Origin: Gammaproteobacteria bacterium | GTDB lineage: Bacteria > Pseudomonadota > Gammaproteobacteria > GCA-002705445 > GCA-002716945 | NCBI GenBank assembly: GCA_002716945.1 | Contig: PBCF01000002.1 | Span: 482,374 to 546,373, forward strand | Reading direction: 5' to 3' | DNA: 64,000 bases | Shown: positions 34,002 to 56,467 of the stretch, piece after piece | Numbering within the stretch: position 1 is the stretch's first letter | How the letters are laid out: each line of letters starts with the position of its first letter | Notes under the pieces: generated by a model | What the model saw: the letters and a program-made list of their open reading frames with translations, nothing else | Told to the model about the DNA's origin: nothing | The model's database searches: none | Position numbers and translations under genes: made by a program

Positions 34002-34003
34002 TA

Positions 34004-39190: not shown

Positions 39191-39469
39191 TTGATGATTA
39201 TGAAAAAAATTTCAAGCTTTATACCTAAACATCTTGCTAAAAAAAGCCTATTAATTGGTAAGTTTGAGTCATATATTAATCAAAATTTTCCTAAAGAAAT
39301 TATATCTGAAATTAATGTTATTAATATATCAGGCTCAACACTCATCTTAGGTTGCAAAAAATCTTCATTTGCTACATTAATGCGATTTGAGAAAGACAAA
39401 TATATTCACATTTTGAAAAAAAATGATTTTTTGGATATTGATGATATAAAAATTATAGTTAATACTTAG
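39191..39469 (+). CDS. dciA: DciA (DUF721) family protein
   Basis: Small protein divergent from secA and converging on lpxC (canonical slot); LILGC..SSFAT.MRF; exact start uncertain. Confidence 0.65.
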
Positions 39470-40377
39470 GTTGGTTCTGGGAGTGGCTTGGTATAAAATA
39501 TAGGTGCTTTCGAATCATCCTCAATTATTACTTCTTCCCATGCTTCACTATTATTAATAAGTTCTCTTAAAAGTAAATTATTGAGATGATGTCCTGACTT
39601 GTATGCTGAAAATGAACCTATTATGCCATGTCCAAGTAAATATAAATCTCCAATTGCATCGAGTATTTTATGTTTAACAAATTCATCCTCAAATCTTAAT
39701 CCTTCTTCATTAATCACCCTATAATCATCTATCACAATTGCATTTTTTACACTTCCACCAAGAGCTAAATTGTTCTTTCTTAATTTTTCTATGTCTTTTG
39801 CAAATCCAAAAGTTCTAGCACGACTGACTTGACTGAGATACGATACTGTCGAAAAATCAATTTCAGCAGATTGTGTTTGTTCTGAAAAAGTTGGATGTTT
39901 AAAGTCAATTGTAAAAGCAACTTTGAATCCATCAAAAGGTTCAATTTTTGCCCACTTACTATCTTCTTTTACTTCAATTGATTTTTTTATTTTAATAAAT
40001 TTTTTTGGTTTACTTTGTTCTGTTATTCCTGCGGATTGAATTAAAAAAACAAACGGTCTAGAACTGCCATCTAGTATTGGTACTTCCGGCCCATCCAATT
40101 CTACAACTGCATTGTCGATACCTAATCCCGCCATTGCTGACAACAAGTGTTCAACCGTAGATATTTTTGATTCTCCTTTAGAAATAGAAGTTGACAATCT
40201 TGTATCATGAACATTATTTAATGTAGCAGAAATAGGATCATTATTAATATCTATTCTTTTAAAAACTATTCCAGAATTGATAGTGCCTGGTTTCAAAACT
40301 AAATTAATTTCTTGACCAGTGTGAAGGCCTATTCCGGTTGCTCTAATTGTATTGGATAGTGTTCTCTGTTTTATCAT
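39466..40377 (-). CDS. lpxC: UDP-3-O-acyl-N-acetylglucosamine deacetylase
   Basis: [35 protein letters not shown]. Confidence 0.97.
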
Positions 40378-40389
40378 AATTGAACTGTA

Positions 40390-40418
40390 ATTATACTTTA
40401 TTTGTCATATTTTGTTAA
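40390..40418 (-). promoter_or_regulatory. Sigma70 promoter for lpxC
   Basis: TTAACA-N17-TATAAT in the 104-bp ftsA-lpxC gap. Confidence 0.6.
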
Positions 40419-40481
40419 TTAAAACGTCATATTTAAAAAAATGTATCGATTCCCCTGAAGATATTAGACAAGATTATGCTA

Positions 40482-41729
40482 TCAAAGTTCTTTTTGAAAA
40501 TAATTTGATATTTTTTCCCATAATTTATTAACAAACTCTAATATAGAATTTGATGAATTCTGACGATGTGGCATCTTCTTAAGTTGATTTTCCCTGAACA
40601 ATAATAAGCCAACTGCTGTAGCATATCTTGTTTTGCCAGTTAAATTTGTCAAACCTTCTATGTGCGTTGGGCTTCCAATTTTTGCTGGGCATCCAAATTT
40701 ACTTTCAGCATAAGTATCTAAGCCTTCTATCTTTGAACCTCCTCCTGTGAAAACTATTCCGCATCTAATTTTATTTGAATAGCCACTATTGAGAATTACC
40801 TCTTGAATTTTTTTAAATATTTCATCTAGTCTGCAGGATATAATATGTTTTAAAATGGGTTTGCTTGTTTCTGATTCTGGTTTATCAGATACTGATGGTA
40901 CAGGAATTTTAATTTGATCATCATCTGGAGATTCTATTAATGAACCATATTTTTTTTTAATTTCTTCGGCGGCATCTAAAGTTGTAACTAGCCCGACTCT
41001 AATATCATTTGTAATAGATTGACCGGCTAATGGTATTACAGATGTATATTTTATGGTTCCATCTGTAAAAATAGCTATATCAGTTGTTCCTCCCCCAATA
41101 TCAACCAAACAAACACCTAAAGATTTTTCTTCTTCTGTTAAAACTGAATAACTTGAAGCTACAGGCTGCAAAACATATTCATCTACATCAAGAAAACTGT
41201 TTTCTATGCATTTAGTTAGGTTCTTTTTTGCTGTCGATGATGCTGTAATAATATGAACATTCGCGTGTAATTTAGATCCAGCCATATTAAGTGGTTCTTT
41301 AATTCCTTTTTGGTCATCAATTGCATACTCTTGCTCTATAACATGAAGTGTTTCTTGATCAGTAGGAATTTGAACATCTGCTGCTTTATCAATCACATTT
41401 TCTTTATCTTCTTCTGTAACTGTTTCATTAATAATTGTTATTATTGCATTACCATTATAACTTTGTATATGTTTTCCTGAGATACCTGTTGTAACAGATT
41501 TAATTGCAAATTGAGCCATACCAGCAGCAGTATCAGTTGCTCTTTTAATACTCGTTACTGTTGTATCAATTTCGGAAATAACACCTTTATTTAATCCAGA
41601 ACAAGGTTCATCTCCAATTCCAATTATTCTCAACTTACCTTCTGGATTATATTCTGCAACTAGACATAAAACTTTGGTTGTACCAATATCTAGTGCGACA
41701 AATTTTTCATTATTATAGGAATTATTCAC
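40482..41729 (-). CDS. ftsA: Cell division protein FtsA
   Basis: LDIGTTKV, VDIGGGTTD, AEEIKKKYG, VFTGGG, ATAVGLL. Confidence 0.96.
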   Translation of the reverse strand: MNNSYNNEKFVALDIGTTKVLCLVAEYNPEGKLRIIGIGDEPCSGLNKGVISEIDTTVTSIKRATDTAAGMAQFAIKSVTTGISGKHIQSYNGNAIITIINETVTEEDKENVIDKAADVQIPTDQETLHVIEQEYAIDDQKGIKEPLNMAGSKLHANVHIITASSTAKKNLTKCIENSFLDVDEYVLQPVASSYSVLTEEEKSLGVCLVDIGGGTTDIAIFTDGTIKYTSVIPLAGQSITNDIRVGLVTTLDAAEEIKKKYGSLIESPDDDQIKIPVPSVSDKPESETSKPILKHIISCRLDEIFKKIQEVILNSGYSNKIRCGIVFTGGGSKIEGLDTYAESKFGCPAKIGSPTHIEGLTNLTGKTRYATAVGLLLFRENQLKKMPHRQNSSNSILEFVNKLWEKISNYFQKEL

Positions 41730-41735
41730 TTAAAT

Positions 41736-42392
41736 CTATTTAACAGCAAAACCAGTTGAATACCTCAAATCAATTGTAGATATTTTTCTATTATACTTTG
41801 TAATCATCTCTTCGTATACATCAATTAAATCATTTAATTTTGGTTTATATGAGGAATATCTAGTAATAATCAGGTGCTTATTCGTATGTATATATAAAAT
41901 ATCTGATTTAATACTAACGGATGTGATTGTTAATCCTAATTTATCTAACTCGTCTGTCAAGGTCACATATAATGTATATATTGTGTTTGTGATGTTAATG
42001 TCTGTTGTTACTATTGGGAGTTTCAGTCTTTTAGTATTATTAATTTGAAAAACTTCACCATTAATTCCTATAACATATTTAGCATTCCAGAAGAAAAGTG
42101 GTTCATACTCTAAAAAATCAATTACTAAAGTATCTGGAAAATCTCGACTCACTAATACACTCTTTATCCAACTATTACTCTCTATTTCTTCTCTGATATT
42201 GCGTATATTAATTTTCAATAAATCATTATCTATATATTTCTTTAGCTGATTCTTTATAATATGTTCGTTAGATCTCAAAAAAGTACCTTTATATTTTATA
42301 TTTTTTATTGGGTAAGACCCTATAAGTTCATCAAAATAGAAAAAACCGACAGAAATAATTATTATGATGGATATAAAAGATATTTTTTTCAT
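41736..42392 (-). CDS. ftsQ: Cell division protein FtsQ (short)
   Basis: N-terminal TM, POTRA-like WIKSV.VSRDFPD, C-terminal IDLRYSTGFAV. Confidence 0.88.
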   Translation of the reverse strand: MKKISFISIIIIISVGFFYFDELIGSYPIKNIKYKGTFLRSNEHIIKNQLKKYIDNDLLKINIRNIREEIESNSWIKSVLVSRDFPDTLVIDFLEYEPLFFWNAKYVIGINGEVFQINNTKRLKLPIVTTDINITNTIYTLYVTLTDELDKLGLTITSVSIKSDILYIHTNKHLIITRYSSYKPKLNDLIDVYEEMITKYNRKISTIDLRYSTGFAVK

Positions 42393-43279
42393 GTTTTTAA
42401 AATTTCAATAATCAACTCTGTAAAATTTAATCCTTTTTTTTTGGCAGACATAGGCACAAGACTATGACTCGTCATTCCTGGTATAGTATTAACTTCAATC
42501 AAACTAATATCTTTGTTTTTATCAATAAAGAAATCTACTCTACCCCAACCTTTACAACCTAAAACCTGAAAAGCTTTCAAACATGTTAATTCTATTTCTT
42601 TCAACATATCCGGATCAAATGTAGGAAAAGTAAAACTTGTATCTTCGTCTACGTATTTAGCTTGATAATCATAAAATTCTCGTTTGGTTTCAATTTTTAT
42701 TATTGGATAGACGATGTCTCCAATTATGGGGGCAGTATATTCAGATCCTTCTATATATTCTTCTACAAAATAATCTCCAACATTCTTAGATGATTGAAAA
42801 TTGAGTAAATTTTGTTTGTTCGTGATAATTTCTATTCCTACACTTGAGCCAGATTTATCAGGTTTTAATATACATTTATTATTTTTTTCAAAGAATTCAA
42901 TTAGCTCAGTAACTGAATAATCTGGTGTTTTTAAGCCATTATTTAACCATTTTTGCTTAGTCATAACTTTAGAGAAGGAAAGTTTTGATGATTGAGAGTT
43001 TGAGCCAATATAATTGATATTTAAGCTATCTAACCAAGATTGTATAGTTCCATCTTCACCTCCTGTTCCATGAATAAGGTTAAATATTATATCAATTGAA
43101 AATTTCTGTACAAAATCTACCAATTCGGATTGATCTTTTTTTAAGTTACATAAAAAAACCGTGTAACCTTCTTGATGCAAATTATCATATACAGCTTTAC
43201 CACTTTCTAAAGAAATTAATCTTTCTTCGGACCATCCCCCGGATAGAATTCCAATATTTTTATTATTTAAATCAGTCAT
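42389..43279 (-). CDS. ddl: D-alanine--D-alanine ligase
   Basis: GGWSEER.ISL.SG, HGTGGEDG, GSSVG, GRVDF, EVNTIPGMT. Confidence 0.95.
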   Translation of the reverse strand: MTDLNNKNIGILSGGWSEERLISLESGKAVYDNLHQEGYTVFLCNLKKDQSELVDFVQKFSIDIIFNLIHGTGGEDGTIQSWLDSLNINYIGSNSQSSKLSFSKVMTKQKWLNNGLKTPDYSVTELIEFFEKNNKCILKPDKSGSSVGIEIITNKQNLLNFQSSKNVGDYFVEEYIEGSEYTAPIIGDIVYPIIKIETKREFYDYQAKYVDEDTSFTFPTFDPDMLKEIELTCLKAFQVLGCKGWGRVDFFIDKNKDISLIEVNTIPGMTSHSLVPMSAKKKGLNFTELIIEILKT

Positions 43280-43284
43280 TGTTA

Positions 43285-44133
43285 TCAGATAATTCTAATT
43301 TCTTTCTCTAATGTTATACCACACTCTTTTTTTATTTTCTTTTTAACTAAATCTATTAACGCTTCAAGTTCACTACATTTACCTGTCCCATCGTTAATAA
43401 AATAGTTAGAATGTTTTTTTGAAATATAAATACCACCAATTTTAAATGACTTTAATCCAGCTCTTTCTATTAAATTACTTGCTGAGACATGGCTGGAGGG
43501 GTTTTTGAAAATACACCCCGATGACCATTGATTTACAGGTTGACTAGACTTTCTTTGTTGCGCATATTCTAGTAATATTTTTTTATTAAAGACGCTAGAT
43601 TGTCTATATTTGAATGTTGCTTCTATAAAATAAGAATTAGAAGGTGAAAAAGTTTTCCTATATGAGGTTTTAATATCATTGCGTTCATAAGTTTTTATTT
43701 TTCCATACTTGTTTATCATTTTAAATTCTTTAATTTTATCCCATATCTCATTTTTGAATGCACCAGCATTCATAAACATAGAGCCTCCTATAGTTCCAGG
43801 AATACCATGGAGGAATTCAAATCCATTTATCTTATTTTTAAAGAGGAATTTTGCAATTTTTGAACAAGTTACTCCGGCTCCAACTTTTATAAAATTATTT
43901 TCAATAGTTATTCTATTTTTTTCAAACTCATTTAAAATAATTACATGACCATTAAAATTAGTGTCTTTGAAAGCAATATTGGATCCATTACCTATAACAA
44001 TAAAATTTGTTTTGATATTTTTAAGAATATTTTGCAGATCACTAGTATCTTTAGGAAAATAGATTTTTTTTGCAATACCTCCTAAATGAATGGTATTAAA
44101 TTTGGATAGTGGTGAGTTATTTAAAATTTTCAT
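43285..44133 (-). CDS. murB: UDP-N-acetylmuramate dehydrogenase
   Basis: IGNGSN, GIPGTIGG..MNAGA, YR, GCIFKNP, KHSNY, LEKE. Confidence 0.95.
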   Translation of the reverse strand: MKILNNSPLSKFNTIHLGGIAKKIYFPKDTSDLQNILKNIKTNFIVIGNGSNIAFKDTNFNGHVIILNEFEKNRITIENNFIKVGAGVTCSKIAKFLFKNKINGFEFLHGIPGTIGGSMFMNAGAFKNEIWDKIKEFKMINKYGKIKTYERNDIKTSYRKTFSPSNSYFIEATFKYRQSSVFNKKILLEYAQQRKSSQPVNQWSSGCIFKNPSSHVSASNLIERAGLKSFKIGGIYISKKHSNYFINDGTGKCSELEALIDLVKKKIKKECGITLEKEIRII

Positions 44134-44143
44134 TTTTTATAAA

Positions 44144-45226
44144 TTAAATATATTTTAATATTTCTAATTCTTTAGTAATAATATTTATTGGATGTTTTGG
44201 AAAAATATCTTGAATATTTTTAGACAGCATATATAAACGTTTTCTATCATTCAGTAATAAATTTAAAATATTTACAAATTCTTCTATAAACGAGTCACTT
44301 TGTTCTATTAGAATTGCTGCTGCACTATCAGCTAAATATTGAGCATTTTTTAATTGATGTTTATCTGTAGCAAATGGAAATGGAATAAGAATTGCAGCTT
44401 TGCCAATAGCCGATAATTCAGAAATTGAGGTTGATCCGGATCTGCAAATTACAATATCTGCCCAATCATAAAATTTTTCAATATTTTCTACATACCCTTC
44501 CACCGAAACATTCAGATCATATTGCTTGTATCTATTTATAGTATCTTCTTTATTTTTTTCTCCAGATATATGACGAATTGACAAATTTGTAACATCAAAA
44601 TGTGAAAATCCAAAGGGTAAAACTTTATTAAAAAATTGTGCCCCTTGACTGCCACCTAAAACCAAAATATTAATCATTGTAGATTCTGATAGATATTTTT
44701 TTTCAGGCTTTTCTAAAGAATAGAATATTTTTCTAACAAAATTTCCAGAGTGAATGATTTTAGAGTTAATTTTGTTAAAACTAAGAGGAAATGTTTCAAA
44801 TACTTTTTTACAAAAATAATAATTTATTTTATTGGCAGTGCCTGCTATTGAATTTTGTTCAAGTAAAAAAGATGGAATATTTAATAAAAATGCTGAAATA
44901 GTGACGGGTGTACTAACAAATCCACCAAATCCAAAAACAAATTTAGGTTGATATTTTCTTAGCAATTTAAATGACTGATAAATAGATTGAAATAAAAAAA
45001 TAATTCCTAGAATTTTTTGTAGTATACTTTGACCTCTAAATGCCTTAGCATTGATTTTTTCAAGAGTTATAGATTTTTCTTTAATTATTTTATTTTCTAA
45101 TCCTTCAGAAGTTCCAAACCAAATAATTTTATATCCTTTTCTAATAAATTCTTGAGATAAAGTATATGCAGGGTAGACATGTCCTCCTGTTCCACTTGCT
45201 AATATACCAATATAACGTTCTGACAT
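44144..45226 (-). CDS. murG: Undecaprenyl-PP-MurNAc-pentapeptide GlcNAc transferase
   Basis: GTGGHVYP, GFGGFVS, EQN..AG, GGSQGA, RSG, HQ..NA. Confidence 0.95.
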   Translation of the reverse strand: MSERYIGILASGTGGHVYPAYTLSQEFIRKGYKIIWFGTSEGLENKIIKEKSITLEKINAKAFRGQSILQKILGIIFLFQSIYQSFKLLRKYQPKFVFGFGGFVSTPVTISAFLLNIPSFLLEQNSIAGTANKINYYFCKKVFETFPLSFNKINSKIIHSGNFVRKIFYSLEKPEKKYLSESTMINILVLGGSQGAQFFNKVLPFGFSHFDVTNLSIRHISGEKNKEDTINRYKQYDLNVSVEGYVENIEKFYDWADIVICRSGSTSISELSAIGKAAILIPFPFATDKHQLKNAQYLADSAAAILIEQSDSFIEEFVNILNLLLNDRKRLYMLSKNIQDIFPKHPINIITKELEILKYI

Positions 45227-46386
45227 TAATAACCTCTTTGCACTGCCTGACTAATTTTTTGTTTATTTTCAATTTGTATTCTTATCAATATTCCAATACA
45301 CATAAAAATACATAAAAGATTGGTTCCACCATAACTAATTAATGGAAGTCCCATACCTTTTGTTGGAGCTAGACCTATATTTACCATCATATGTATTATG
45401 ACTTGAAATGTAATTAAAAGCCCTATCATATTAGCTAAAAATGAGCCGAATAATAATCCATTATCAGCAGATTTATGAGCCAATATAAATATCCTCATTA
45501 TCATAATTATATAGGTGAGTATTACCAATATAACAAAAAGCAGTCCTAATTCTTCAGCAATTACCGCAAAAATAAAATCATTATATGCTTCTGGCAAATA
45601 ATTTAATTTTTGTATGCTTGATCCTAAACCAAGTCCAAACAACCCTCCAGAACTAAATGCCAATTCTGATGCAATCAATTGATATCCTGCTCCGGAAGAA
45701 TCTTGCCAAGGATCAATAAAACTCATAATTCTTCTAAATCGGTATGGTGTTAATATTACAAGTAATGCTATTGGTATAATTAAGATTATTGCTGTTGAAA
45801 ACCATTTTTTAAAATTCACACCACCTAATAACATAAGAGAGAAAAATGTCAGTATTAGTAAAAACATGCTACCAAAATCTCTTTGTAAAATTATGATAGA
45901 TGATAAAAGTAAAATTATGATTACAGATTTATAAAAAATTTCATCAATATTATTTCGGAGTATATAACTAGATACCCAAATCAAAATGAATAACCTTGAA
46001 ACCTCAGATACTTGAACAGTTATTATTCCAAGATTTATCCATCTACGAGCTCCTTTGGCTTCAAATCCAAGTCCAGGAATAAAAACTAAAATACAAAAAA
46101 TGAAAGCTAATACTAAAAATAACTTGCTATAGTCCTGATAAAATTTCAATTTAATTTGGGATGTTATATACACAGTAAAAATACCCAGAACAAGGTATAT
46201 TGAGTGTTTGATTGTAAAATGAAATGGATTGTTTAGTTTTTGATATGCTTGATCCAATGTAGCGGATGTTATCATTACCAAGCCAATAGATAAAAGTATA
46301 ATTACACAAGTTACAAAAGTTTTATCTACTCCAAGGCCATCAGTAATGATTAATAACTTTTTTATACGTTCACTGATCAAGATCAT
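45226..46386 (-). CDS. ftsW: Peptidoglycan polymerase FtsW (SEDS)
   Basis: GARRWI, QVSE, YRFRRI, GYQL, PEAYNDFIF, LPLISYGG. Confidence 0.94.
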   Translation of the reverse strand: MILISERIKKLLIITDGLGVDKTFVTCVIILLSIGLVMITSATLDQAYQKLNNPFHFTIKHSIYLVLGIFTVYITSQIKLKFYQDYSKLFLVLAFIFCILVFIPGLGFEAKGARRWINLGIITVQVSEVSRLFILIWVSSYILRNNIDEIFYKSVIIILLLSSIIILQRDFGSMFLLILTFFSLMLLGGVNFKKWFSTAIILIIPIALLVILTPYRFRRIMSFIDPWQDSSGAGYQLIASELAFSSGGLFGLGLGSSIQKLNYLPEAYNDFIFAVIAEELGLLFVILVILTYIIMIMRIFILAHKSADNGLLFGSFLANMIGLLITFQVIIHMMVNIGLAPTKGMGLPLISYGGTNLLCIFMCIGILIRIQIENKQKISQAVQRGY

Positions 46387-47704
46387 TTACTGCATCCATA
46401 AATGCAATTCCTCTTTCTTTGAAACTTTCAAACATATCAAAACTGGGGCTACCAGGAGATAATAATACAATATCATTGGCTATTGCATTGTTATATGATA
46501 TTTGAACAGATTCATTTATTGTATTACATATTATTCTTGGAGCCTTTGAGACAATTTGTTTGTTAATTGATTTTTTATTTTCCCCAAATAAGATTAGCAA
46601 TTTTACATGGTTATCAATATAAATATTCAATTTAGTATAATCTAGATTTTTTTTTGAACCCCCCATTATCAATATTATATTTTTCTTTAAATATTTTAAT
46701 GCTGTTATTGTTGAAAAAACATTTGTAGACTTTGAATCATTAAAATAACTTACATCATTAATCTTTTTTACTAATTGAATTCGATGAGGGAGATGATTAA
46801 ATTTTTTCAATATGTTTATACTTTTTTTAAAAAAATCATTTTTATCGTAAATATTTTTAGTAATTGAAAGCACAGCTAAAATATTATCTAAATTATGTAT
46901 ACCTCTATAATCGAATGAAGTATCCTCATAATATAATTTAGTTTTATCCATTCTCAAATCACGTACATGAGAATTATTTATATATATTTTATAAGAATTA
47001 CTCGTATTTGTATTTTCAAACCCATATTTTCTGATATTTGGAATATCTTTCATGTATTCTATAAGATTATTGTGACAAATATTAATCTTAGTACTATTAA
47101 AAATCTTTTTTTTTGTATTTAGGTAATTATCAAAATTATTATGTCTTTCGAGATGATCGTCTTGAATATTAGATATTAAACTTATATTACTATTTAAATT
47201 AGTCATATATTCTAACTGATAACTTGATAATTCTAAAATAATATAATTAAATTCTTCATCTAAAGTTAGAAATGGAGATATACCATTATTACCACAAGCT
47301 TTAGCCTTAATACCCAATCTATTTAATAAATATTCCAACATTGTGACAATGGTTGTTTTACCATTAGTGCCAGTTACTGAAATAATTTTACGTCGAGATA
47401 ATCTTTTAAATAAATCTATGTCAGTTATTATTGGAATTGATCTTTGATTTAGATCTTTTATTATTTCTTGATTAGAATCTAAACCAGGACTAATTATAGC
47501 TTCCTCTACATTATTCAAAAATTCTTTTTCATATTTTACAAATCTCATATCATGTTTATTTGATATGGCTATGATAGATTTATCAATGCAAGTAACATCT
47601 CTTGTATCAAAAATTTTAAATCGTATGTTATTTTTATGAAAGTAATCAATACATGATTGGCAGGTTTTACCCGTTCCAATAATCAATGTACATTTCTCAT
47701 CCAT
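46370..47704 (-). CDS. murD: UDP-MurNAc-L-Ala--D-glutamate ligase
   Basis: SPG, VTGTNGKTT, ELSSYQL, DHLERH, HR, NDSKSTN, SPG..SFD.F. Confidence 0.94.
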   Translation of the reverse strand: MDEKCTLIIGTGKTCQSCIDYFHKNNIRFKIFDTRDVTCIDKSIIAISNKHDMRFVKYEKEFLNNVEEAIISPGLDSNQEIIKDLNQRSIPIITDIDLFKRLSRRKIISVTGTNGKTTIVTMLEYLLNRLGIKAKACGNNGISPFLTLDEEFNYIILELSSYQLEYMTNLNSNISLISNIQDDHLERHNNFDNYLNTKKKIFNSTKINICHNNLIEYMKDIPNIRKYGFENTNTSNSYKIYINNSHVRDLRMDKTKLYYEDTSFDYRGIHNLDNILAVLSITKNIYDKNDFFKKSINILKKFNHLPHRIQLVKKINDVSYFNDSKSTNVFSTITALKYLKKNIILIMGGSKKNLDYTKLNIYIDNHVKLLILFGENKKSINKQIVSKAPRIICNTINESVQISYNNAIANDIVLLSPGSPSFDMFESFKERGIAFMDAVNDLDQ

Positions 47705-47705
47705 A

Positions 47706-48791
47706 TTATCTAATCTTTAAGGATGCCAAAGCAATTAAGACCAATATAAAGGTTATTATCCAAAATCGAACTATAATTTTTGGTTCTGCCCATCCACTCA
47801 ATTCAAAATGATGGTGTAATGGTGACATTTTAAAAATACGTTTTTTAGTTCGCTTAAAATATAAAACTTGTATAATTACAGATAGGACTTCAGCTATAAA
47901 TACTCCACTCATAATAGCGAATGCTATTTCTTGTCTCAGTAAGATTGCCATTGTTCCCAAAACAGCTCCTAATGATAGTGATCCAACATCGCCCATAAAG
48001 ATCTCAGCAGGATATGAGTTGTACCATAGAAATCCTAGTCCCGAACCTACAATTGCACCTGCAAAGATTGAGATCTCAGATGCATCTTTTAGATAAGGGA
48101 TTAAAAGATAGTTAGCAATATTAATATTTCCTTGTACGTATGCAAATACAACAAATGCTGCTGCTATTAATATACATGGAAGAATTGCTAAGCCATCTAA
48201 TCCATCCGTCAAGTTAACAGCATTACTTGATCCAACTATAATAAATATACACCAAGGTATAAAAAGAATTCCCATGAAAAAAGAGAAGTCTTTGAAGAAA
48301 GGTAATATTAATGTTAGTTCTGTTACATCTAAATAATTTATATATAAATAAATAATTGCTAATGCAGAAAAGAAGATTTGTAAGAAAAATTTATTTTTAC
48401 CTTTAATCCCATCGCTAGATGATTGAATATATTTTTTATAATCATCATAAAAACCAATAATACCAAATGTAGTTAAAATAAATAATAGTATCCAAATATA
48501 TCTATTATTGAGTTCAGACCAAAGTAAAGTTGTTAAAATAATTGAAATAATAATTACCAAACCTCCCATTGATGGTGTTTTTGATTTTTCTGTAATATGT
48601 GATTGAGGTCCATCTTGTCTAATTGATTGATAAAGTTTTTTATTATTAAGCCAACGCATTAATAATGAAGTCATGATGAGAGACATAAATAGACCAGTTA
48701 ATGCTGCTAAAACAATTCTAAGACTCAAATACTGGAAAACATTAAAGCCAGAATAATATTGAGCAAGATAATCAAAAATATAAAGTAACAT
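47706..48791 (-). CDS. mraY: Phospho-MurNAc-pentapeptide transferase
   Basis: TPSMGG, DDY.K, NAVNLTDGLDGLA, FMGDVGS, PLHHHFE. Confidence 0.97.
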   Translation of the reverse strand: MLLYIFDYLAQYYSGFNVFQYLSLRIVLAALTGLFMSLIMTSLLMRWLNNKKLYQSIRQDGPQSHITEKSKTPSMGGLVIIISIILTTLLWSELNNRYIWILLFILTTFGIIGFYDDYKKYIQSSSDGIKGKNKFFLQIFFSALAIIYLYINYLDVTELTLILPFFKDFSFFMGILFIPWCIFIIVGSSNAVNLTDGLDGLAILPCILIAAAFVVFAYVQGNINIANYLLIPYLKDASEISIFAGAIVGSGLGFLWYNSYPAEIFMGDVGSLSLGAVLGTMAILLRQEIAFAIMSGVFIAEVLSVIIQVLYFKRTKKRIFKMSPLHHHFELSGWAEPKIIVRFWIITFILVLIALASLKIR

Positions 48792-48797
48792 AATTTA

Positions 48798-50135
48798 TTA
48801 TTTATTCTCTGTGTTTATCAATTGCATGACTATATCTTCAAATTTCATAAAACGCGAAGCTTTCACTAAGATATTAACATCTTTATGTAATTTTGTTCTA
48901 ATAAACTCAACAAGTGAATGTTTATCATCAAAACAGTGAACATTATTTCCGAAGGTTTCCTTAACAATTTTTTCAAATTGACCAATATAAAATAACTTTT
49001 CAATCCTAAGTTGTTTCGCATATTTAACAACATCTTGATGAAATTTTTCTGATTCAGATCCAAGTTCACCCATATCACCCATAACAAACCAGTGATTACC
49101 CGCCATTGACGATAAAGAATCTAGAGATCTTTTCATTGAAGAAGGATTTGCATTATAACTATCATCAATAATTATTGAGTTCTTGATTCCATCATACAGA
49201 TAAAATCTTCCTTTTATGCCTTTATAGTTAGTATAACCATCAACTATATTTTGTATAGATGCTCCAGCTTGATGAGAACACGCTACAGCGATAAGAATAT
49301 TTTCTATAAATTTTATATGGTTATCTTTAAGTAATAACTGTAACAATTGATTATTTGGTAATTTTATATTTAGTTCATTTCCAATAATACTTTTTATGGA
49401 GTAATCAGCATTATTTTTTATAGAAATTGTTACTAGATTATGATTATTTACAATTTTTTTCCATCTAAGAAAATTTTTATCATCTTTGTTTAAAATAACT
49501 GTTTTAGAAAAACCTTGATCAATTAATATTTCTTCTTTGGTTAGTAAAATATTTTCAAAACTACCAAAACTTTCTATATGAGCTGCCGAGACATTGAGAA
49601 GAGTTACAATTTTAGGATTAACAATTTCACACAAATACTTTATATCATCTTTAACACTTGCTCCCATTTCTAATACGCAATATTTATGATTTGTATTTAA
49701 TTTAAAAATAGATAATGGAACGCCAATATGATTATTAAAATTACCATAATTAGTTAATGCATTCTTATTTTCATTTAATATAGAATGAATTAATTTTGTT
49801 ACTGAAGTTTTACCATTAGTCCCAGTAACTGCAATTGATAATGGGTTCAACTGATTTATGTGTTGCTGTGCAATTTTTCCTAATGCTATCATTGTATTTT
49901 TGACAACAAGCTGAGGTATGTTATCAATTTTTCTTTCTGAGATGATTGCAGATGCACCTTTTGAAATTGCATTATTGATATAATTATGTCCATCGAAATT
50001 ATATCCTTTGATAGCAATAAAAAGATTTCCTGATTCTATTGTTCTTGAATCAATAGATATACCATCAAACTGAGAATCTGAATTAATTAATTCAGCATCT
50101 AATAACTTTTTAAGTTTAGATAAAGAAGATTTCAT
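48798..50135 (-). CDS. murF: UDP-MurNAc-tripeptide--D-Ala-D-Ala ligase
   Basis: TGTNGKTS, NFNNHIGVP, EMGAS, DDSYNANP, GDMGELG, KASR. Confidence 0.95.
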   Translation of the reverse strand: MKSSLSKLKKLLDAELINSDSQFDGISIDSRTIESGNLFIAIKGYNFDGHNYINNAISKGASAIISERKIDNIPQLVVKNTMIALGKIAQQHINQLNPLSIAVTGTNGKTSVTKLIHSILNENKNALTNYGNFNNHIGVPLSIFKLNTNHKYCVLEMGASVKDDIKYLCEIVNPKIVTLLNVSAAHIESFGSFENILLTKEEILIDQGFSKTVILNKDDKNFLRWKKIVNNHNLVTISIKNNADYSIKSIIGNELNIKLPNNQLLQLLLKDNHIKFIENILIAVACSHQAGASIQNIVDGYTNYKGIKGRFYLYDGIKNSIIIDDSYNANPSSMKRSLDSLSSMAGNHWFVMGDMGELGSESEKFHQDVVKYAKQLRIEKLFYIGQFEKIVKETFGNNVHCFDDKHSLVEFIRTKLHKDVNILVKASRFMKFEDIVMQLINTENK

Positions 50136-51529
50136 TTCAAACCTGAATTTAGTATTTTAAAATCATTATGGAGAATATTGCGATTCTTGTACACAATATT
50201 CTTTTCATTACCTTTGCCAGCAATAACAATAAAATCATCCTTGCGGGCTAATGATATAGCTTTATAAATAGCTTTTTTTCTAGATGGAATAACAAAAACT
50301 TTTTTTTCATTTTCTATCCCTTTTTTAATATCATTTAATATTTTCTTAGGATTTTCAGTACGTGGATTATCATCAGTTAAAATAATATAATCAGAAAAGT
50401 TAGATGAGATTTTCCCCATCTCTTTTCTTTTCCAAACATCTCTATCACCACCACACCCAAAAATAGTAATAATTTTACCAGGTTTTAGTGATGAATATTT
50501 ACTAATCTCTTTTAACAGCATTAATAATGAACTAGGAGTATGAGCGTAATCAATTATATAAGTGCCTTTGTTATTAGTTTGTATAAAATGATTTCTGCCA
50601 TTAATGGTTTTCAATTTATTAAATATCTTGAAGATTAATTTAAATGATAATTTATAAATTTTAAGAATTTCGAATGCCACTCTTAAATTATATAAATTTG
50701 AAATTGTAGTAGGTATTTTAATTTTATTTAAATCTATTTCAATATCTGAATTATAGAAATGTCTTTTAGCCTTAGAAGTAATTAATTTCAAATTTTTCAT
50801 ACTTCTAGAACAATCCGCATTAATAAAAATATGTCTTGTTGACATATTCATTAGTCTCATTTTTGCTTTTACATAATTTTGTATCGATTTATGATAATCT
50901 ATATGATCTTGATTAATATTAGTAAGAATTCCTATATCAAATTTTATATTAACTAATCTATCTTGTTCTAATCCTTGTGATGAACATTCAATTAATATTT
51001 TATCAACATGATTTTTTCTAAAATAATTAAAATATTTATATAAGATATCTATTCTTGGGGTTGTATAGTTAGTTGAGTCTAACTTTGGATATATGCCATT
51101 TCCTTCACTAGATATAATTCCTAATTTTTCACCTGTTAACGAGAAACATTGTGCAAGAATATGTAACTGAGAAGTTTTTCCATCTGTACCAGTCACCCCT
51201 ATTATAGGAATTTTCTTCAGAGGTTCATCATAGATACAATTCAAAAAGTTATTATAATTTAACCCAATTTCTTTGATATATAAAATAGGTATATTTCTTA
51301 ATGTATCTAATAATTCTATTTTTGTATCTGTAATTATTGCTTTTGCACCATTTTTGATTGCTTCACATACATATTTAACTTTAACTTTTTTGTCTGTTTT
51401 TATAGATACAAAGACTTTTCCTCTACAATTATTCTTGCTGTGAAAAACAAACATATTATCTAATTTTTTTTTATATAATTTGTTCTCTTGGAGAAATTCA
51501 ATTACTTTTAGAAATATTCTGTCTTTCAT
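50132..51529 (-). CDS. murE: UDP-MurNAc-dipeptide--meso-DAP ligase
   Basis: VTGTDGKTS, TTP, E.SS, DHIDYH, DYAHTP, GCGGDRD, DNPR (meso-DAP specificity). Confidence 0.92.
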   Translation of the reverse strand: MKDRIFLKVIEFLQENKLYKKKLDNMFVFHSKNNCRGKVFVSIKTDKKVKVKYVCEAIKNGAKAIITDTKIELLDTLRNIPILYIKEIGLNYNNFLNCIYDEPLKKIPIIGVTGTDGKTSQLHILAQCFSLTGEKLGIISSEGNGIYPKLDSTNYTTPRIDILYKYFNYFRKNHVDKILIECSSQGLEQDRLVNIKFDIGILTNINQDHIDYHKSIQNYVKAKMRLMNMSTRHIFINADCSRSMKNLKLITSKAKRHFYNSDIEIDLNKIKIPTTISNLYNLRVAFEILKIYKLSFKLIFKIFNKLKTINGRNHFIQTNNKGTYIIDYAHTPSSLLMLLKEISKYSSLKPGKIITIFGCGGDRDVWKRKEMGKISSNFSDYIILTDDNPRTENPKKILNDIKKGIENEKKVFVIPSRKKAIYKAISLARKDDFIVIAGKGNEKNIVYKNRNILHNDFKILNSGLK

Positions 51530-53249
51530 GCTTATCCGGATAAACTTGTAATAAATTTAATGTATGTCCCATAAACTCTTTAAATATTGGAGCGGCGTTC
51601 TTTCCTCCACTAGGTTCAGATACTTTTGGGTTTCTTAGAATAATAACCGAAACAAATTCAGGTTTAGATGCAGGTACAATTCCTACAAACAATACTACAT
51701 ATTTATTATCACTGTATTTGCCGTTCTCAATCATCTTGGCTGTTCCTGTTTTTCCTGCTACTGAATATTTTTCTAATCGTGCTTTTTTAGCCGTCCCATC
51801 ATTAGATACAACATTTGTCATCATTTTTATGATGTTTTTTGAAAGTTCTTTATCTAAAATTTTTTTCTTATGTATTTTATCATTATCTAAATGTTTGAGA
51901 TATGTAAGTTCAATATAATTTCCATAGTTAGCTAAAATTGCATACGCATTTGCAAGATGTAATAAGGTCATATCTAGTCCATAACCATAACTAATGGATG
52001 CATGTTCACTTTTTTCCCAACTTTTATAATGATGTAAATTTCCTTTCTGCTCTCCTGGCAAACCTATGTATAATGACTTGCCAAACTGCAGTTTTTCAAG
52101 ATTATCTGAAATATGTTTTTTATCTAATCCTAAGGCAACTAAAGCTGCACCTACATTGCTTGATTTAGTAATTATTCCTTTTAAGTCTAATTTACCTAAA
52201 TATTTATAATCTTTGATGGTATGTCCGTTAATTTCTAAGAATCCAGGTGCAGTATCAATAACTGAATAATTATCAAAATTTCCAGATTCTAGTGCGGTGT
52301 ATATTATAAATGGCTTCATTGTAGAACCAGGTTCAATAATATCAGTTACAACTTTATTTTTTATTTTTTCACCTTTCATCTCACTTCTATTAGATGGATT
52401 AAAGGATGGATAATTGACCATTGTTATAATTTCGCCAGTAGTATTTTTAATTAATACAAGTGACGCGCTATCTGCATTTGTTTTTTTGACATGTTTCTTT
52501 AAAGTATTATATGCATGTAATTGGATGTATTTATCTAAACTCAAATGTATATCTTGACCAAGTTTTGGAGGTTTAACAATTTCAATAGTTTCAATTTGTC
52601 TGCCAAAATTATCTTTTTTAATTTTTTTTAATCCTTTTATTGGGGTTAAAAGATTATTGTTGGCATATTCTATTCCTTCTTGACCGATATCATCTATATT
52701 AGTAAATCCTATTATATTTGAGAAATAACGACCACCAGGGTATGTTCTATGATACTCGTCTATGAAATAAATTGATGGTAGATTTAATTTTCTAATTTTT
52801 GTAACAATAGAATCTGGTAGTTTTCTTTTTAAATAATATTCTTTTTTGTTTTTATTTATAGTAAATATTTTTTTAAATTTATCTTTTTTTATATTTAATA
52901 AAACTAAAAGAGGTTCATATACTTTTAGATCAATATTTTTTTGTTGATTTATTTCTGAAAAATTAATACATAAAGTTTGTCTAGGTAGACTCATTGCTAA
53001 TATTTCACCATTTCTATCATATATAAAGCCTCTAAAAGTATTTATAGAGCGAAGTTGTGTTTGTCTTTTATTGGCTAGTTTGCTTAGATTAGATTTACAA
53101 AACTTTTGATTCAAAATAAAACAATCTGTATCAAATCCTTGCAAAAGAATTGTTCTGGATAAAATTAAAACAAAGAATATGGAGACAATAGCGTATACAG
53201 TGTATTGCCTCCAAAGGTTATGTTTTTCGTTATTTTTTTGTTTAGTCAG
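51498..53249 (-). CDS. ftsI: Penicillin-binding protein 3 (FtsI), probable CTG start
   Basis: RGFIYDRNG, STMK (SxxK), SSN (SxN), KTG. The frame stays open 35 codons upstream of the track's TTG and encodes the TM anchor. The first plausible start after the in-frame stop (53259-61) is CTG 53249. Identity is near certain, the start less so. Confidence 0.88.
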   Translation of the reverse strand: MTKQKNNEKHNLWRQYTVYAIVSIFFVLILSRTILLQGFDTDCFILNQKFCKSNLSKLANKRQTQLRSINTFRGFIYDRNGEILAMSLPRQTLCINFSEINQQKNIDLKVYEPLLVLLNIKKDKFKKIFTINKNKKEYYLKRKLPDSIVTKIRKLNLPSIYFIDEYHRTYPGGRYFSNIIGFTNIDDIGQEGIEYANNNLLTPIKGLKKIKKDNFGRQIETIEIVKPPKLGQDIHLSLDKYIQLHAYNTLKKHVKKTNADSASLVLIKNTTGEIITMVNYPSFNPSNRSEMKGEKIKNKVVTDIIEPGSTMKPFIIYTALESGNFDNYSVIDTAPGFLEINGHTIKDYKYLGKLDLKGIITKSSNVGAALVALGLDKKHISDNLEKLQFGKSLYIGLPGEQKGNLHHYKSWEKSEHASISYGYGLDMTLLHLANAYAILANYGNYIELTYLKHLDNDKIHKKKILDKELSKNIIKMMTNVVSNDGTAKKARLEKYSVAGKTGTAKMIENGKYSDNKYVVLFVGIVPASKPEFVSVIILRNPKVSEPSGGKNAAPIFKEFMGHTLNLLQVYPDKHERQNISKSN

Positions 53250-54429
53250 CTTGTTGCCTTAAAAAAGCTGGGATGTCGATATTTTCATCTTCATCATCTT
53301 CATCACTATTAACACTTTTTTCAGTATTTAATAAACTAGATTGAGTATTAAAGCTCATCTGAGTTATATTTGGCTTAACTACAGCTTGCTCAACAGAGTT
53401 TATTGGTGTTTGTGCATCAATATTCGTGTTATCTGCTGAACCAAGACTACTATTGACTGTATTGATATTAGTACCCTCATCAAATCCAGTAGCAATAATT
53501 GTGACTCTCAACTCGCCAAGATTATCCTCTTCTTTAATACATCCTGTGATGATTGTTGCTTCTTCATCAGCAATATCTTTAATCTTACGTCCAATTAGAT
53601 TTAGCTCTTTCGGAGTTAAATCATCTCCAGAAGTTATATTTACAAGAACTCCTGTAGCACCTTGAAGATTAAAACTATCAAGTAATGGACAACTTAGTGC
53701 AGCGTTGATGGCATCTTCAGCTCTATTTTCTCCTTCTGCTTTTGCTGAACCCATCATGGCTTTACCTTTTCCTGACATTACTGTTTTTACATCCGCAAAA
53801 TCTACATTCATAAATCCACGAATTGTTATAATTTCAGCAATTCCTTTTACAGCTCCAGTAATGACACCATCAGCATTATCAAACTGAGAGTAAATTGAAC
53901 CATTTTCACCAAAGACTTCCATTAATTTAGTATTAGGAATTACAATTAAAGAATCTACCCATTCTTCAAGATTAACAATACCAACCTCAGCATGCTCCAT
54001 TCTTTCCTTGCCTTCCCATTCAAATGGTTTAGTTACAACCGCAACAGTTAGAATTCCTAGATCTCGTGCAATTTGTGCAATAATAGGTGCTGCACCAGTT
54101 CCAGTTCCGCCGCCCATTCCTGCTGCTATAAATAGCATGTCTGCTCCTTCTATGGTTTTTTGGAGTTGTTCCTTTGATTCAAGCGCTGCTTGTCTTCCTT
54201 TTTCTGGATCTGCACCTGCACCAAGACCATTTGTTATTTCGCTACCAATTTGAACAGTGGTTGCTCCATCAATATCTCTAAGTGCTTGTGCATCAGTATT
54301 TGCAACTATAAAGTCCGCTCCATGTATTGTATCTCTGAGCATTGTATCAACAGCATTGCCGCCAGCTCCTCCAACACCAATAACTTTGATAATTGCGTTT
54401 TGACTGTAATTATCTACTATTTCAAACAT
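53242..54429 (-). CDS. ftsZ: Cell division protein FtsZ
   Basis: GVGGAGGNA, NTD.QAL, GGGTGTG, NVDFADV, C-terminal DIPAFLRQQAD; GGAGGT SD 8 nt upstream. Confidence 0.98.
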   Translation of the reverse strand: MFEIVDNYSQNAIIKVIGVGGAGGNAVDTMLRDTIHGADFIVANTDAQALRDIDGATTVQIGSEITNGLGAGADPEKGRQAALESKEQLQKTIEGADMLFIAAGMGGGTGTGAAPIIAQIARDLGILTVAVVTKPFEWEGKERMEHAEVGIVNLEEWVDSLIVIPNTKLMEVFGENGSIYSQFDNADGVITGAVKGIAEIITIRGFMNVDFADVKTVMSGKGKAMMGSAKAEGENRAEDAINAALSCPLLDSFNLQGATGVLVNITSGDDLTPKELNLIGRKIKDIADEEATIITGCIKEEDNLGELRVTIIATGFDEGTNINTVNSSLGSADNTNIDAQTPINSVEQAVVKPNITQMSFNTQSSLLNTEKSVNSDEDDEDENIDIPAFLRQQAD

Positions 54430-54431
54430 GA

Positions 54432-54716
54432 TTAAATACCTCCGTTAGAAGTCGTTAAATTTAAATAAATAATTTTATTTTTACTAGGAATATCCATCCC
54501 TAAAGTTTCTTTATAACTTTTGTAGCTCAATTTTTTCTCATAATTTGATTTGATATCAAGTAATTTTTTATGTTGATTTAATTTTACTGATAGTGATTTT
54601 TCTTTTTTTTCTAATCCAATATTCATAAGTCTATTTTGATACTTAAGATATATTACTGAAAATGCAGAAAGTGATAATACTAGCATAATGAACAAATTAA
54701 TTGATATTTTCATCAT
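54432..54716 (-). CDS. ftsL: Cell division protein FtsL (divergent)
   Basis: Short N-terminus, TM helix, coiled coil, LGM..P motif; follows rsmH. Confidence 0.75.
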   Translation of the reverse strand: MMKISINLFIMLVLSLSAFSVIYLKYQNRLMNIGLEKKEKSLSVKLNQHKKLLDIKSNYEKKLSYKSYKETLGMDIPSKNKIIYLNLTTSNGGI

Positions 54717-55635
54717 TTTTCTCCAGTATATTCAATTTTGCTGATCTAGATCTTGGATTGGCAGAAATTTCTTCGTTTGATGGTTTTATTGATTTTGAGA
54801 TAATATTAAACATTTTAGATAAAAAAGATTTATCTAGAGGTAAATCTTTTGGTGCAGAAAGATTTGTATCAGTATAAGTTATAAAATCTTTAATTACTCT
54901 ATCTTCAAGCGAATGGTAAGTAATTAAAACTAATCTGCCTTTAGGGGCTAATACCTGATATGATTTTTCTAAAGCATTTTTCAATACTTCTAATTCTTGG
55001 TTGATATAAATTCGTATAGCTTGGAAAGTTCGAGTTGCATTGTGTTTATTTTTATCATTTTTTGGAACAGATTGATTTATGATGTTAACTAAATCATGTG
55101 TGTTTTCAATTTTATTAGATTTTCTAAATGATATTATTTTTTTAGCTATCTTATTTGCATATCTTTCTTGTCCAAATTTCTTTATAACATTTCTTAATTG
55201 CTCTTCACTAACTTCTGATATCCACTCTCTAGCTGGGGATCCACTATTCTGATCAAATCTCATATCAAGAGGGCCGTCATTTTTAAAACTAAAGCCTCTT
55301 TTTGGGTTATCTAGATGTTCAGATGAAACACCTAAATCAAATAAGATTCCATTCACAGAACCATGAATTCCCCAGTCTTTAGTTATTACGTCTAGGGAAG
55401 AGAAACATCCGTGTTTAAGAGTAAATCTTTTATCACTTAAAGTATTCTTGTTTGCATTTTTTATAGCATCAAAGTCTTTTTCAATGGAATATAACTTACC
55501 ATCATTATTTAAATAATTTAGTATCTCTTGTGAATGTCCACCAGATCCAAATGTTGTATCTATATAGATACCAGACTTTTTAACGCAAAGCGCTTGTATT
55601 GATTCTTCTTTCATAACTGGAATATGATTTATCAT
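54697..55635 (-). CDS. rsmH: 16S rRNA m4C1402 methyltransferase
   Basis: HIPVM, D.TFGSGGHS, DLGVSS, PLDMR, FQAIRIYIN.E, YHSLEDR, NPRSRSAKL. Confidence 0.97.
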   Translation of the reverse strand: MINHIPVMKEESIQALCVKKSGIYIDTTFGSGGHSQEILNYLNNDGKLYSIEKDFDAIKNANKNTLSDKRFTLKHGCFSSLDVITKDWGIHGSVNGILFDLGVSSEHLDNPKRGFSFKNDGPLDMRFDQNSGSPAREWISEVSEEQLRNVIKKFGQERYANKIAKKIISFRKSNKIENTHDLVNIINQSVPKNDKNKHNATRTFQAIRIYINQELEVLKNALEKSYQVLAPKGRLVLITYHSLEDRVIKDFITYTDTNLSAPKDLPLDKSFLSKMFNIISKSIKPSNEEISANPRSRSAKLNILEKNDENIN

Positions 55636-55832
55636 CCTGTTAGCTTTTTAAATTTCATTATGTTGTCGTAAGCTTCTCTAGCTTCAATAAATCTTTGATT
55701 AGAATCCAAGTCATTACTTGTCTTGTCAGGATGATGCTTTAAGGCAACTTTAATAAATGCTCTTTTAATTTTACTTAAATCTTCGTTTCCTTTAATATCA
55801 AGTATTTTATAACATTGGGTTAAATTCATCAT
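55632..55832 (-). CDS. Stand-alone J-domain (DnaJ-domain) protein, 66 aa
   Basis: YKILDI..IKRAF...LKHHPDK...F...REAY J-domain with intact HPD; ATGA overlaps with both neighbours. Confidence 0.85.
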   Translation of the reverse strand: MMNLTQCYKILDIKGNEDLSKIKRAFIKVALKHHPDKTSNDLDSNQRFIEAREAYDNIMKFKKLTG

Positions 55833-56281
55833 ATACGTACATCTCCCAAAACTGATTCTTCGTTTTCATCAGTTTCTTCAGTTTTCCATTTAGAGACTTG
55901 GCTTTGCCACAGATCATCATTCCAAATTTCAAATTTTTCACCTTGGCCAATTAAAGTCACTTTCTTAACTAAATCTGCAGAGTTTCTTAGAGGTTTAGAA
56001 ATCAAAATTCTACCATTATTGTCCATTACTACATCTTCAGCATGGCCAACTAATAACCTTTGAATTCTTCTAGCATTTTTATTAAATGAAGGTAAGTTGT
56101 TGATTCTTTTCTGTATTTCATTCCATATTTGTAATGTGTAAAGCAATAAACACTTTTCTTCAGTATCTATGGTGATAACCATATTACCATTGACTTGGTT
56201 GGTTATAACTTCCCTAAATTTTGTAGGAATCGCTAAACGACCTTTTGTATCTAAATTAATGTTATGGATACCCTTAAACAT
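55829..56281 (-). CDS. mraZ: Division/cell wall cluster transcriptional repressor MraZ
   Basis: MFKG...LDTKGRLAIP and DNNGRILI twin motifs, G.GEKFEIW; start at ATG 56281. Confidence 0.96.
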   Translation of the reverse strand: MFKGIHNINLDTKGRLAIPTKFREVITNQVNGNMVITIDTEEKCLLLYTLQIWNEIQKRINNLPSFNKNARRIQRLLVGHAEDVVMDNNGRILISKPLRNSADLVKKVTLIGQGEKFEIWNDDLWQSQVSKWKTEETDENEESVLGDVRI

Positions 56282-56330
56282 ATTAACCACTATTTCCCAT
56301 AATTTAACAAAAATTACCATATTTCAACAC
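56281..56330 (-). promoter_or_regulatory. MraZ operator: five degenerate direct repeats with 10-bp period
   Basis: Minus strand GTGTTGAAAT/ATGGTAATTT/TTGTTAAATT/ATGGGAAATA/GTGGTTAATA directly before the ATG; resembles the TGGGN/GTGG boxes bound by MraZ. Confidence 0.7.
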
Positions 56331-56357: not shown

Positions 56358-56467
56358 GGTTTATAAGCTTTTTATGCGGTCTAATATGTTGTTTTTTATA
56401 GAAAAATAATGGAATAGTTATATAAAACATATATTTATAAGAGGTTTGAAGAATTCTTATATGGATG

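Follow-up and report, generated by a model that had tools for sequence, protein, structure and literature searches.

What happens to an operon when ftsZ leaves the place that it holds in the canonical order of the dcw cluster of genes for division and the cell wall? The question is raised by a 64,000-nucleotide stretch of gammaproteobacterial DNA (assembly GCA_002716945.1, contig PBCF01000002.1, positions 482,374 to 546,373; the window in what follows), in which ftsZ, on the minus strand, has ftsL on one side and ftsI on the other. The neighbourhoods ftsQ-ftsA-ftsZ and ftsL-ftsI serve as textbook cases of gene order under selection. Reasons that have been proposed include gradients of expression, co-translational assembly and a co-linearity with the assembly of the divisome. 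The dcw order in its canonical, Escherichia coli-type form reads mraZ-rsmH-ftsL-ftsI-murE-murF-mraY-murD-ftsW-murG-murC-ddlB-ftsQ-ftsA-ftsZ-lpxC. Our results show that the window holds a real and ancient departure from a gene order that is among the most conserved in bacteria. It is probably explained by an ancient transposition of a block of genes, with an RNA hairpin and a weak ftsI start that step expression down after ftsZ.

Gene order and age of the arrangement

Gene identities and order were taken from profile searches with NCBIfam and Pfam (Rfam for rnpB), and they confirmed the order from mraZ to lpxC, with ftsZ between ftsL and ftsI, that an initial annotation had proposed. Read along the minus strand, the cluster runs mraZ, a J-domain open reading frame (ORF), rsmH, ftsL, ftsZ, ftsI, murE, murF, mraY, murD, ftsW, murG, murB, ddl, ftsQ, ftsA, a 104-nt gap, lpxC and secA; according to the ORF list, 19 closely packed minus-strand genes span 58605 to 36488, and the GC content of the window is about 28%. 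The ftsZ gene (53242..54429, minus strand) codes for 395 amino acids, scores 384.6 bits against TIGR00065 (cut-off 295.2) and matches the Pfam domains Tubulin (PF00091) and FtsZ_C (PF12327). Its translation carries the GGGTGTG signature GMGGGTGTGAAP, which serves in nucleotide binding, as well as a C-terminal peptide of the gammaproteobacterial type, DIPAFLRQQAD, the conserved element through which FtsZ binds FtsA and ZipA. By profile score, domains and motifs, this is a complete and ordinary FtsZ. The upstream neighbour, ftsL (54432..54716, minus strand), reached 28.6 bits against TIGR02209, under the cut-off, and was identified also by its position, size and pattern of transmembrane and coiled-coil segments; FtsI, MurE, MurF, MraY, MurD, FtsW, MurG, MurB, Ddl, FtsQ, FtsA, LpxC and SecA were all recognised by profiles. 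The cluster keeps mraZ-rsmH-ftsL at its promoter-proximal end, with the extra J-domain ORF inside, and an intact murE-murF-mraY-murD-ftsW-murG block. What is broken is the ftsL-ftsI adjacency (ftsZ stands between the two, as in 18 relatives), the position of murC and the terminal ftsQ-ftsA-ftsZ-lpxC order. Neither a second ftsZ, for which the initial annotation had asked to look, nor murC, a second ftsI or a second ftsW was found within the 64-kb window.

A chimeric join at ftsL-ftsZ or ftsZ-ftsI, produced during assembly or binning, was foreseen from the start as what could overturn this order, and it has next to no chance of being the explanation. The identical FtsZ occurs in the same context on at least 23 contigs from independent ENA/Tara and JGI assemblies, which differ in their samples and assemblers; single-cell genomes and long-read metagenome-assembled genomes (MAGs) share the order, and RNA contigs cross the ftsL-ftsZ junction. 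Mis-assembly was therefore ruled out by the independent contigs and by the 18 relatives, and so was chance, by these relatives and by five metagenome contigs that share ftsA-lpxC. These relatives, found by a scan of one genome per species, are further species-level genomes with the same order (dusA, methyltransferase-like ORF, mraZ, rsmH, ftsL, ftsZ, ftsI, murE onward), and include long-read MAGs and four single-cell genomes (AG-894-P10, AG-461-I20, AG-390-N19 and AH-324-A07). Their FtsZ is 63-85% identical, MurE identity falls to 37%, and the GC content of the locus is 28-33%. Five metagenome contigs whose FtsA is 69-71% identical show murG-murB-ddl-ftsQ-ftsA-lpxC-secA, the ftsA-ftsZ adjacency is present in 56 of the 62 other metagenome loci, and other Gammaproteobacteria in the same scan retain ftsQ-ftsA-ftsZ-lpxC.

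The assembly of one relative (L014, CACLCV01) is classified in the Genome Taxonomy Database (GTDB) as order GCA-002705445, family GCA-002716945 (supplement of PMC11582366). This order has been placed as a sister lineage of SAR86, beside PIVX01 and with Francisellales further out, and has two families in the table of the same study (PMC11582366). The relatives divide into two sequence subclades, which would correspond to these two families. Membership in SAR86 itself was ruled out, given the classification of L014 and a GC content of 31-40% in SAR86 versus about 28% here. Since independent assemblies, 18 diverged relatives and the classification of L014 all bear on the point, the move of ftsZ from ftsA-ftsZ-lpxC to ftsL-ftsZ-ftsI, described at first for a single contig, is kept across a deep clade, and the rearrangement is old and has become fixed in a marine order, uncultured and with small genomes, rather than being an oddity of one strain. 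The suggestion that the order might already be widespread and described thus held in its first half, in that the arrangement is lineage-wide, but no prior description of ftsZ between ftsL and ftsI was found in the literature searched; the main dcw survey known to us (Megrian et al. 2022) lay outside that search, so that absence is not proven. Searches of the literature by the identifiers of the MAGs and single-cell genomes likewise gave nothing. Among the known deviations of the dcw cluster that have been listed are its loss from Chlamydiae and from Planctomycetes and its dispersal in the Cyanobacteria, but not ftsL-ftsZ-ftsI (PMC8871954).

The new junctions and the hairpin after ftsZ

The junctions had been called polished, and this is true of one side of ftsZ but not of the other. 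On the upstream side, the ftsL stop codon TAA (54434-54432) is followed by 2 nt and then by the ftsZ ATG at 54429, and a GGAGGT Shine-Dalgarno sequence (54438..54443, minus strand) lies within the last ftsL codons, 8 nt before the ATG; this spacing, the motif and the 104-nt gap between ftsA and lpxC were exactly as first described. The GGAGG core and the ftsZ ATG are invariant in 13/13 aligned relatives, with the position of the ftsL stop shifting around them, which is what a highly translated gene would need. At the site where ftsZ normally lies, the gap between ftsA and lpxC (40378..40481, minus strand; ftsA stop at 40482) holds a promoter-like TTAACA-17-TATAAT (40418-40390) that matches the sigma-70 pattern at 11/12 positions, and the gap is similar in size in the relatives, with its own promoter-like element. 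Metatranscriptome contigs cross it upstream of the putative lpxC promoter; therefore lpxC is at least partly co-transcribed with ftsA.

On the downstream side, no canonical ftsI start is found. The ORF list places the start of ftsI (51498..53249, minus strand) at TTG 53144, which would delete the membrane anchor. Profile and frame analysis show that ftsI is read in the ftsZ frame plus one, that this frame is open from 53258, from a TAA inside the Phe-Leu-Arg codons of FtsZ, and that no ATG, GTG or TTG precedes TTG 53144. The upstream extension encodes a tail rich in Lys and Asn, then Trp-Arg and a hydrophobic helix GNKLTKQKNNEKHNLWRQYTVYAIVSIFFVLILSRTILLQGFD, so that FtsI has its N-terminal membrane anchor encoded in frame as well as the PBP dimerisation and transpeptidase domains; with the extension included, alignments to FtsI/PBP2 profiles begin at profile positions 21, 27 and 3 and score slightly higher. 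Upstream of the anchor, ATG, GTG and TTG are absent in 17/19 species, the window included. The spacer between ftsZ and the anchor has no stop in the ftsI frame in any of the 19 species, as against stops in the other two frames in 17/19 and 9/19, and it is exactly 15 codons long in eight diverged species. An in-frame CTG and/or ATT overlaps the last two ftsZ codons in 19/19 species, and in the window ftsI probably starts at such a CTG (53249-53247). From these frames, ftsI would begin at a near-cognate codon, possibly through reinitiation by ribosomes that finish ftsZ.

Unconventional decoding of ftsI was also considered, either by initiation in the ftsZ frame, at an NTG overlapping a conserved Trp codon, with a +1 shift afterwards, or by a +1 shift at the ftsZ stop that would yield an FtsZ-FtsI fusion. 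In nine species an NTG (ATG, TTG, GTG or CTG) does lie one base before the ftsI frame, beside a GGAG motif, and in L018 the loss of one G has brought an ATG into frame. However, the NTG is not conserved in its N and is absent altogether from the L008-type subclade, the short ORF that it opens varies from 7 to 29 codons, neither site has a slippery sequence, and the ftsI frame is open from the ftsZ stop in 19/19 species, all of which make such decoding very improbable.

The codons for the ftsI membrane anchor contain a conserved RNA hairpin (53180..53213, minus strand) with an 11-bp stem and a 12-nt loop followed by a T-rich tract, about 30 nt past the ftsZ stop codon. Its folding z-score in the window is -4.4, and six species gave z-scores of -3.5 to -6.3 versus shuffles, with free energies of -12 to -20 kcal/mol across species. 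RNAalifold predicts the hairpin unaided, and 8 of its 11 pairs are compensatory, with changes on both sides. In a 14-pair version, 86.5% of cells are paired, versus 34-42% after a shift of the partner by 1-2 columns and 34-60% over the slid controls overall, and none of 500 shuffles reached its covariation score. The arms differ by subclade (GGAGACAATA/TATTGTCTCC, GCTGCTGTTAT/ATAACAGCAGC and GAGACGATCAT/ATGATCGTCTC), and so do the residues encoded across them (WRQY...IVS, RLLLF...AAL and MRRSF...MIVS). Pairing has been kept while the encoded residues changed, which reflects selection on RNA pairing inside a coding region. The hairpins of L009, L010 and L022 resemble textbook intrinsic terminators and others do not; in the 12 nt after the stem, 5-11 are T across species and 8/12 in the window, in codons for a membrane helix that are T-rich anyway.

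These results bear on the idea that the rearrangement is a neutral scar, fixed by drift in a lineage of small genomes, in which the hairpin is an ordinary terminator that moved along with ftsZ, and the missing start of ftsI is tolerated damage. It overlaps in history with the reading that we favour and differs from it on function. Terminator-like hairpins do occur directly after ftsZ in some canonical loci (for example L104, L144 and L154), the CTG and ATT codons are forced by the last codons of FtsZ, and the fact that Thiomicrospirales also lost ftsZ between ftsA and lpxC indicates that such moves are survivable. Nevertheless, pairing that is kept through two-sided changes while the amino acids vary can only be explained by selection on the RNA, strong structure is absent from most canonical gammaproteobacterial ftsZ-lpxC spacers, and the spacer length is exact across the eight diverged species. 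A scar without function is possible, though we consider it rather unlikely.

A separate ftsZ RNA and the step after it

Evidence on RNA comes from the word depth of assembled metatranscriptome contigs, mainly those of the relative L017, for which eight runs from at least four studies were used. In seven of the eight, ftsZ forms a block from about 5913-5930 to about 7195-7257 with a depth of 9-140, against 0-8 upstream over rsmH/ftsL and 0-5 downstream over ftsI, so that ftsZ RNA is several-fold to tens-fold deeper than that of either neighbour. The block starts inside ftsL, 70-90 nt upstream of the ftsZ ATG, and its 3' boundary coincides with the L017 hairpin at 7194-7225, contigs giving no true ends. 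Such a block points to a 5' end specific to ftsZ, a promoter or a processing site, in addition to the 3' boundary, and a processing site with selective stabilisation is as possible as a promoter. Four runs of the window species show the same trend at low depth: ftsZ is covered at 2-20, together with parts of rsmH, mraZ, ftsA and lpxC, and there is essentially no RNA from ftsI to murG. By contig depth, then, ftsZ RNA is a separate and abundant unit, bounded on the 5' side by an edge of its own and on the 3' side at the hairpin. The presence of RNA over ftsA and its absence over ftsI to murG in the window runs also argue, weakly, against an operon interior free of promoters.

The initial annotation had read the arrangement as a selected redesign that places ftsZ beside the single promoter controlled by MraZ, in which promoter proximity alone would set the level of ftsZ and no internal promoters of the ftsQAZ type would be needed. 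Several features are in keeping with this: ftsZ is the fifth gene after the promoter/operator-like region, all neighbouring genes from mraZ up to ftsZ overlap or lie 2 nt apart, no gap in the array exceeds 10 nt except after ftsZ, and the genomes of the lineage are streamlined (longest contig 820 kb). But in 7/8 runs of L017 the RNA of ftsZ stands several-fold to tens-fold above that of rsmH/ftsL just upstream, with contigs that begin at 5913-5930 within ftsL, and RNA is seen over ftsA but not over ftsI-murG. A step-up just before ftsZ does not fit a logic of one promoter with abundance set by proximity, so the dependence of ftsZ on the MraZ promoter without internal signals was not upheld, and we regard a redesign of this kind as improbable.

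The reading that we favour, an ancient block transposition followed by a step down in expression after ftsZ, would begin with an ancestor of GCA-002705445 that exchanged two adjacent blocks, ftsZ and ftsI...ftsA. Such a clean outcome, with function kept throughout the exchange, would be expected if ftsI-ftsZ had been duplicated in tandem and one copy of each part had then been lost. The joint of that duplication would coincide exactly with the ftsZ-ftsI junction, a possible reason for the loss of the start signals of ftsI at this place. In the resulting operon, ftsZ would be a high-output module, with an invariant, strong ribosome binding site (RBS) and ATG, an RNA 5' boundary in ftsL and the hairpin at its 3' boundary, where the RNA would be terminated or stabilised; ftsI would have lost its canonical start, leaving only a CTG or ATT that overlaps the end of ftsZ. 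Together these features may lower expression by at least about ten-fold from the abundant FtsZ to the scarce FtsI and the downstream enzymes; in E. coli, FtsZ outnumbers FtsI well over ten-fold. The new junction would then have evolved to keep the abundant ftsZ message, and the ribosomes on it, from over-producing FtsI and the products of the twelve genes behind it.

A stricter form of coupling can be imagined, in which the junction sets stoichiometry: FtsI would come only from ribosomes that complete ftsZ and start again at the non-AUG codon overlapping its stop, and only these would melt a hairpin in the first ftsI codons that otherwise ends or destabilises the transcript. If so, FtsI synthesis and transcription of the twelve downstream genes would be a fixed small fraction of FtsZ synthesis. 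We think such a coupler unlikely.

A number of observations weigh against a transposition with an expression step as we describe it. A conserved promoter inside ftsL was not recognisable in the alignment or in L017, and the region has no more promoter-like matches than chance would give (127 vs 129.5). The T-rich tail of the hairpin is partly explained by Phe/Leu/Ile codons of the membrane helix in a 28% GC genome, and a consensus terminator scan did not list the hairpin, whose loop is 12 nt. Two relatives have a canonical ftsI start, L017 (TTG) and L018 (ATG), and the CTG and ATT codons are by-products of the Ala-Asp-stop codons of FtsZ; being forced in this way, their presence is not independent evidence of an ftsI start. 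On the RNA side, contig word depth is a poor measure of expression and may include DNA, it separates neither promoter from processing nor terminator from decay barrier, it comes mainly from L017 and not from the window species, and the eighth L017 run (X8) is flat.

Flanking genes and known systems

The remaining genes of the operon are all on the minus strand. rsmH (54697..55635) scores 346 bits against TIGR00006; murE, murF, mraY, murD, ftsW, murG, murB and ddl occupy 42389..51529 with junctions that overlap or are at most 10 nt; ftsQ and ftsA (40482..42392) were matched by profiles, and lpxC (39466..40377), with its ATG at 40377, scores 384 bits against TIGR00325. Between murG and murB (43285-45226, minus strand) murC is missing, as it is in L087-L092, and since the 64 kb hold no fourth Mur ligase it must be elsewhere in the genome. 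At the upstream end, TIGR00242 (149 bits) aligns from residue 1 of the 150-aa version of MraZ (mraZ, 55829..56281), which makes ATG 56281 the likely true start in place of the first ATG (56320). A putative promoter/operator (56283..56327, minus strand) was read from the sequence as TTGAAA followed by four TGG(T/G)-type repeats spaced by about 10 nt, with a promoter-like match of 9/12 at 56327-56299. The operator of MraZ in E. coli consists of TGGGN repeats, and by analogy the repeats here are putative MraZ boxes. The J-domain-only ORF (55632..55832, minus strand; 66 aa, with an HPD motif) overlaps mraZ and rsmH by ATGA at both ends and is kept at the same position in 16 relatives at 42-88% identity; we know of no J-domain gene in other dcw operons.

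Upstream of mraZ come, in order, dusA, a 268-aa methyltransferase-like ORF and the RNase P RNA gene rnpB (56466..56803, minus strand; Rfam RF00010, 291 bits), which lies directly upstream of the operon on the same strand as mraZ, with a promoter-like TTTACA-16-TATAAT at 56840-56813 (11/12 match). Its RNA depth exceeds the rest by orders of magnitude, and many RNA contigs from other organisms join at its conserved core. Diverging from dusA (58654-61167, plus strand) are mobA, an archaeoflavoprotein/dihydromethanopterin-reductase-like gene and a dihydropteroate-synthase-like gene. Such genes of the tetrahydromethanopterin type beside the operon fit the C1 metabolism that has been reported for order GCA-002705445 (PMC8371827). 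Downstream of secA, at 33411-36488, lie argJ, a Nudix/thiamine-phosphate-synthase-like gene, zapD and coaE.

Three further observations stand apart from the argument. One metatranscriptome contig (run X4, depth 2.25, with 20 nt on its shorter side) joins 53138 to 53246 and so omits exactly the spacer, hairpin and anchor codons (53139-53245) between the ftsZ stop and TTG 53144; it may be an alignment artefact or a variant. In Rheinheimera sp. WS51 (L023 7194-7260), the ftsZ-lpxC spacer holds a tandem array of about seven copies of the 7-nt GAGTGTT. Finally, an FtsZ search against 50% representatives returned unrelated FtsZs of high GC, and its top match, P0121, is an 840-aa protein of the alga Closterium with two FtsZ-like stretches, which is unrelated to the finding.

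Compared with the canonical dcw cluster, the window has the same genes on one strand in tight packing, mraZ first with an operator-like repeat sequence, an identical murE-to-murG order, ftsQ adjacent to ftsA, and lpxC-secA downstream. It differs in the position of ftsZ between ftsL and ftsI, in the lack of murC, in the J-domain ORF between mraZ and rsmH, and in the conserved hairpin and non-canonical ftsI start at the new junction. The closest parallel at the other end of the cluster is found in the cultured Thiomicrospirales Thiomicrorhabdus and Hydrogenovibrio (L115, L167 10001-12395, L168 10001-12246), in which the suf operon is followed by murC-ddl-ftsQ-ftsA-lpxC-secA. There, as in the window, lpxC and secA come directly after ftsA without an intervening ftsZ, but the cluster is broken and murC is retained. 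No Tubulin gene was found within 10 kb of ftsA in these genomes, and none of the proteins returned with the FtsZ of L169 as query came from Thiomicrospirales. Because the nearest relative by FtsA (L169) is canonical, the loss in Thiomicrospirales was probably an independent event. The argJ/Nudix/zapD/coaE neighbourhood also follows secA in Thiomicrospirales (L167, L168); ftsZ is thus the one gene to have left a region that is conserved in other respects.

Intercistronic stem-loops are known to make expression unequal within operons, as do the REP sequences of malE-malF in E. coli and the puf hairpins of Rhodobacter. The hairpin described here resembles them in being a stable structure directly 3' of a highly expressed cistron, with a sharp downstream drop in RNA, but it lies inside the coding sequence of the next gene, is not repeated and is joined to a missing canonical start. 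A REP-like repeated element was considered and rejected, the hairpin arm being not over-represented and the operon having no comparable inverted repeats elsewhere. In E. coli, ftsZ is served by internal promoters in ddlB-ftsQ-ftsA together with RNase E processing. The ftsZ of this lineage is similar in that its RNA is more abundant than that of the genes before it and begins at a 5' end of its own within a coding gene upstream; unlike in E. coli, that gene is ftsL, and read-through feeds 12 further division and wall genes instead of lpxC.

The abundance of ftsZ transcripts serves as an in-situ index of growth in plankton (PMC13349992), and in the clade GCA-002705445 ftsZ RNA is a unit separate from the rest of the operon. 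More broadly, an abundant marine order that has long lived with ftsZ misplaced is a natural experiment on the ideas proposed for dcw order. The new order shows which changes were required, namely a strong RBS upstream of ftsZ and a structured junction poor in start codons downstream of it, and the combination of hairpin and weak start may represent a compact natural device for a large step in expression inside an operon.

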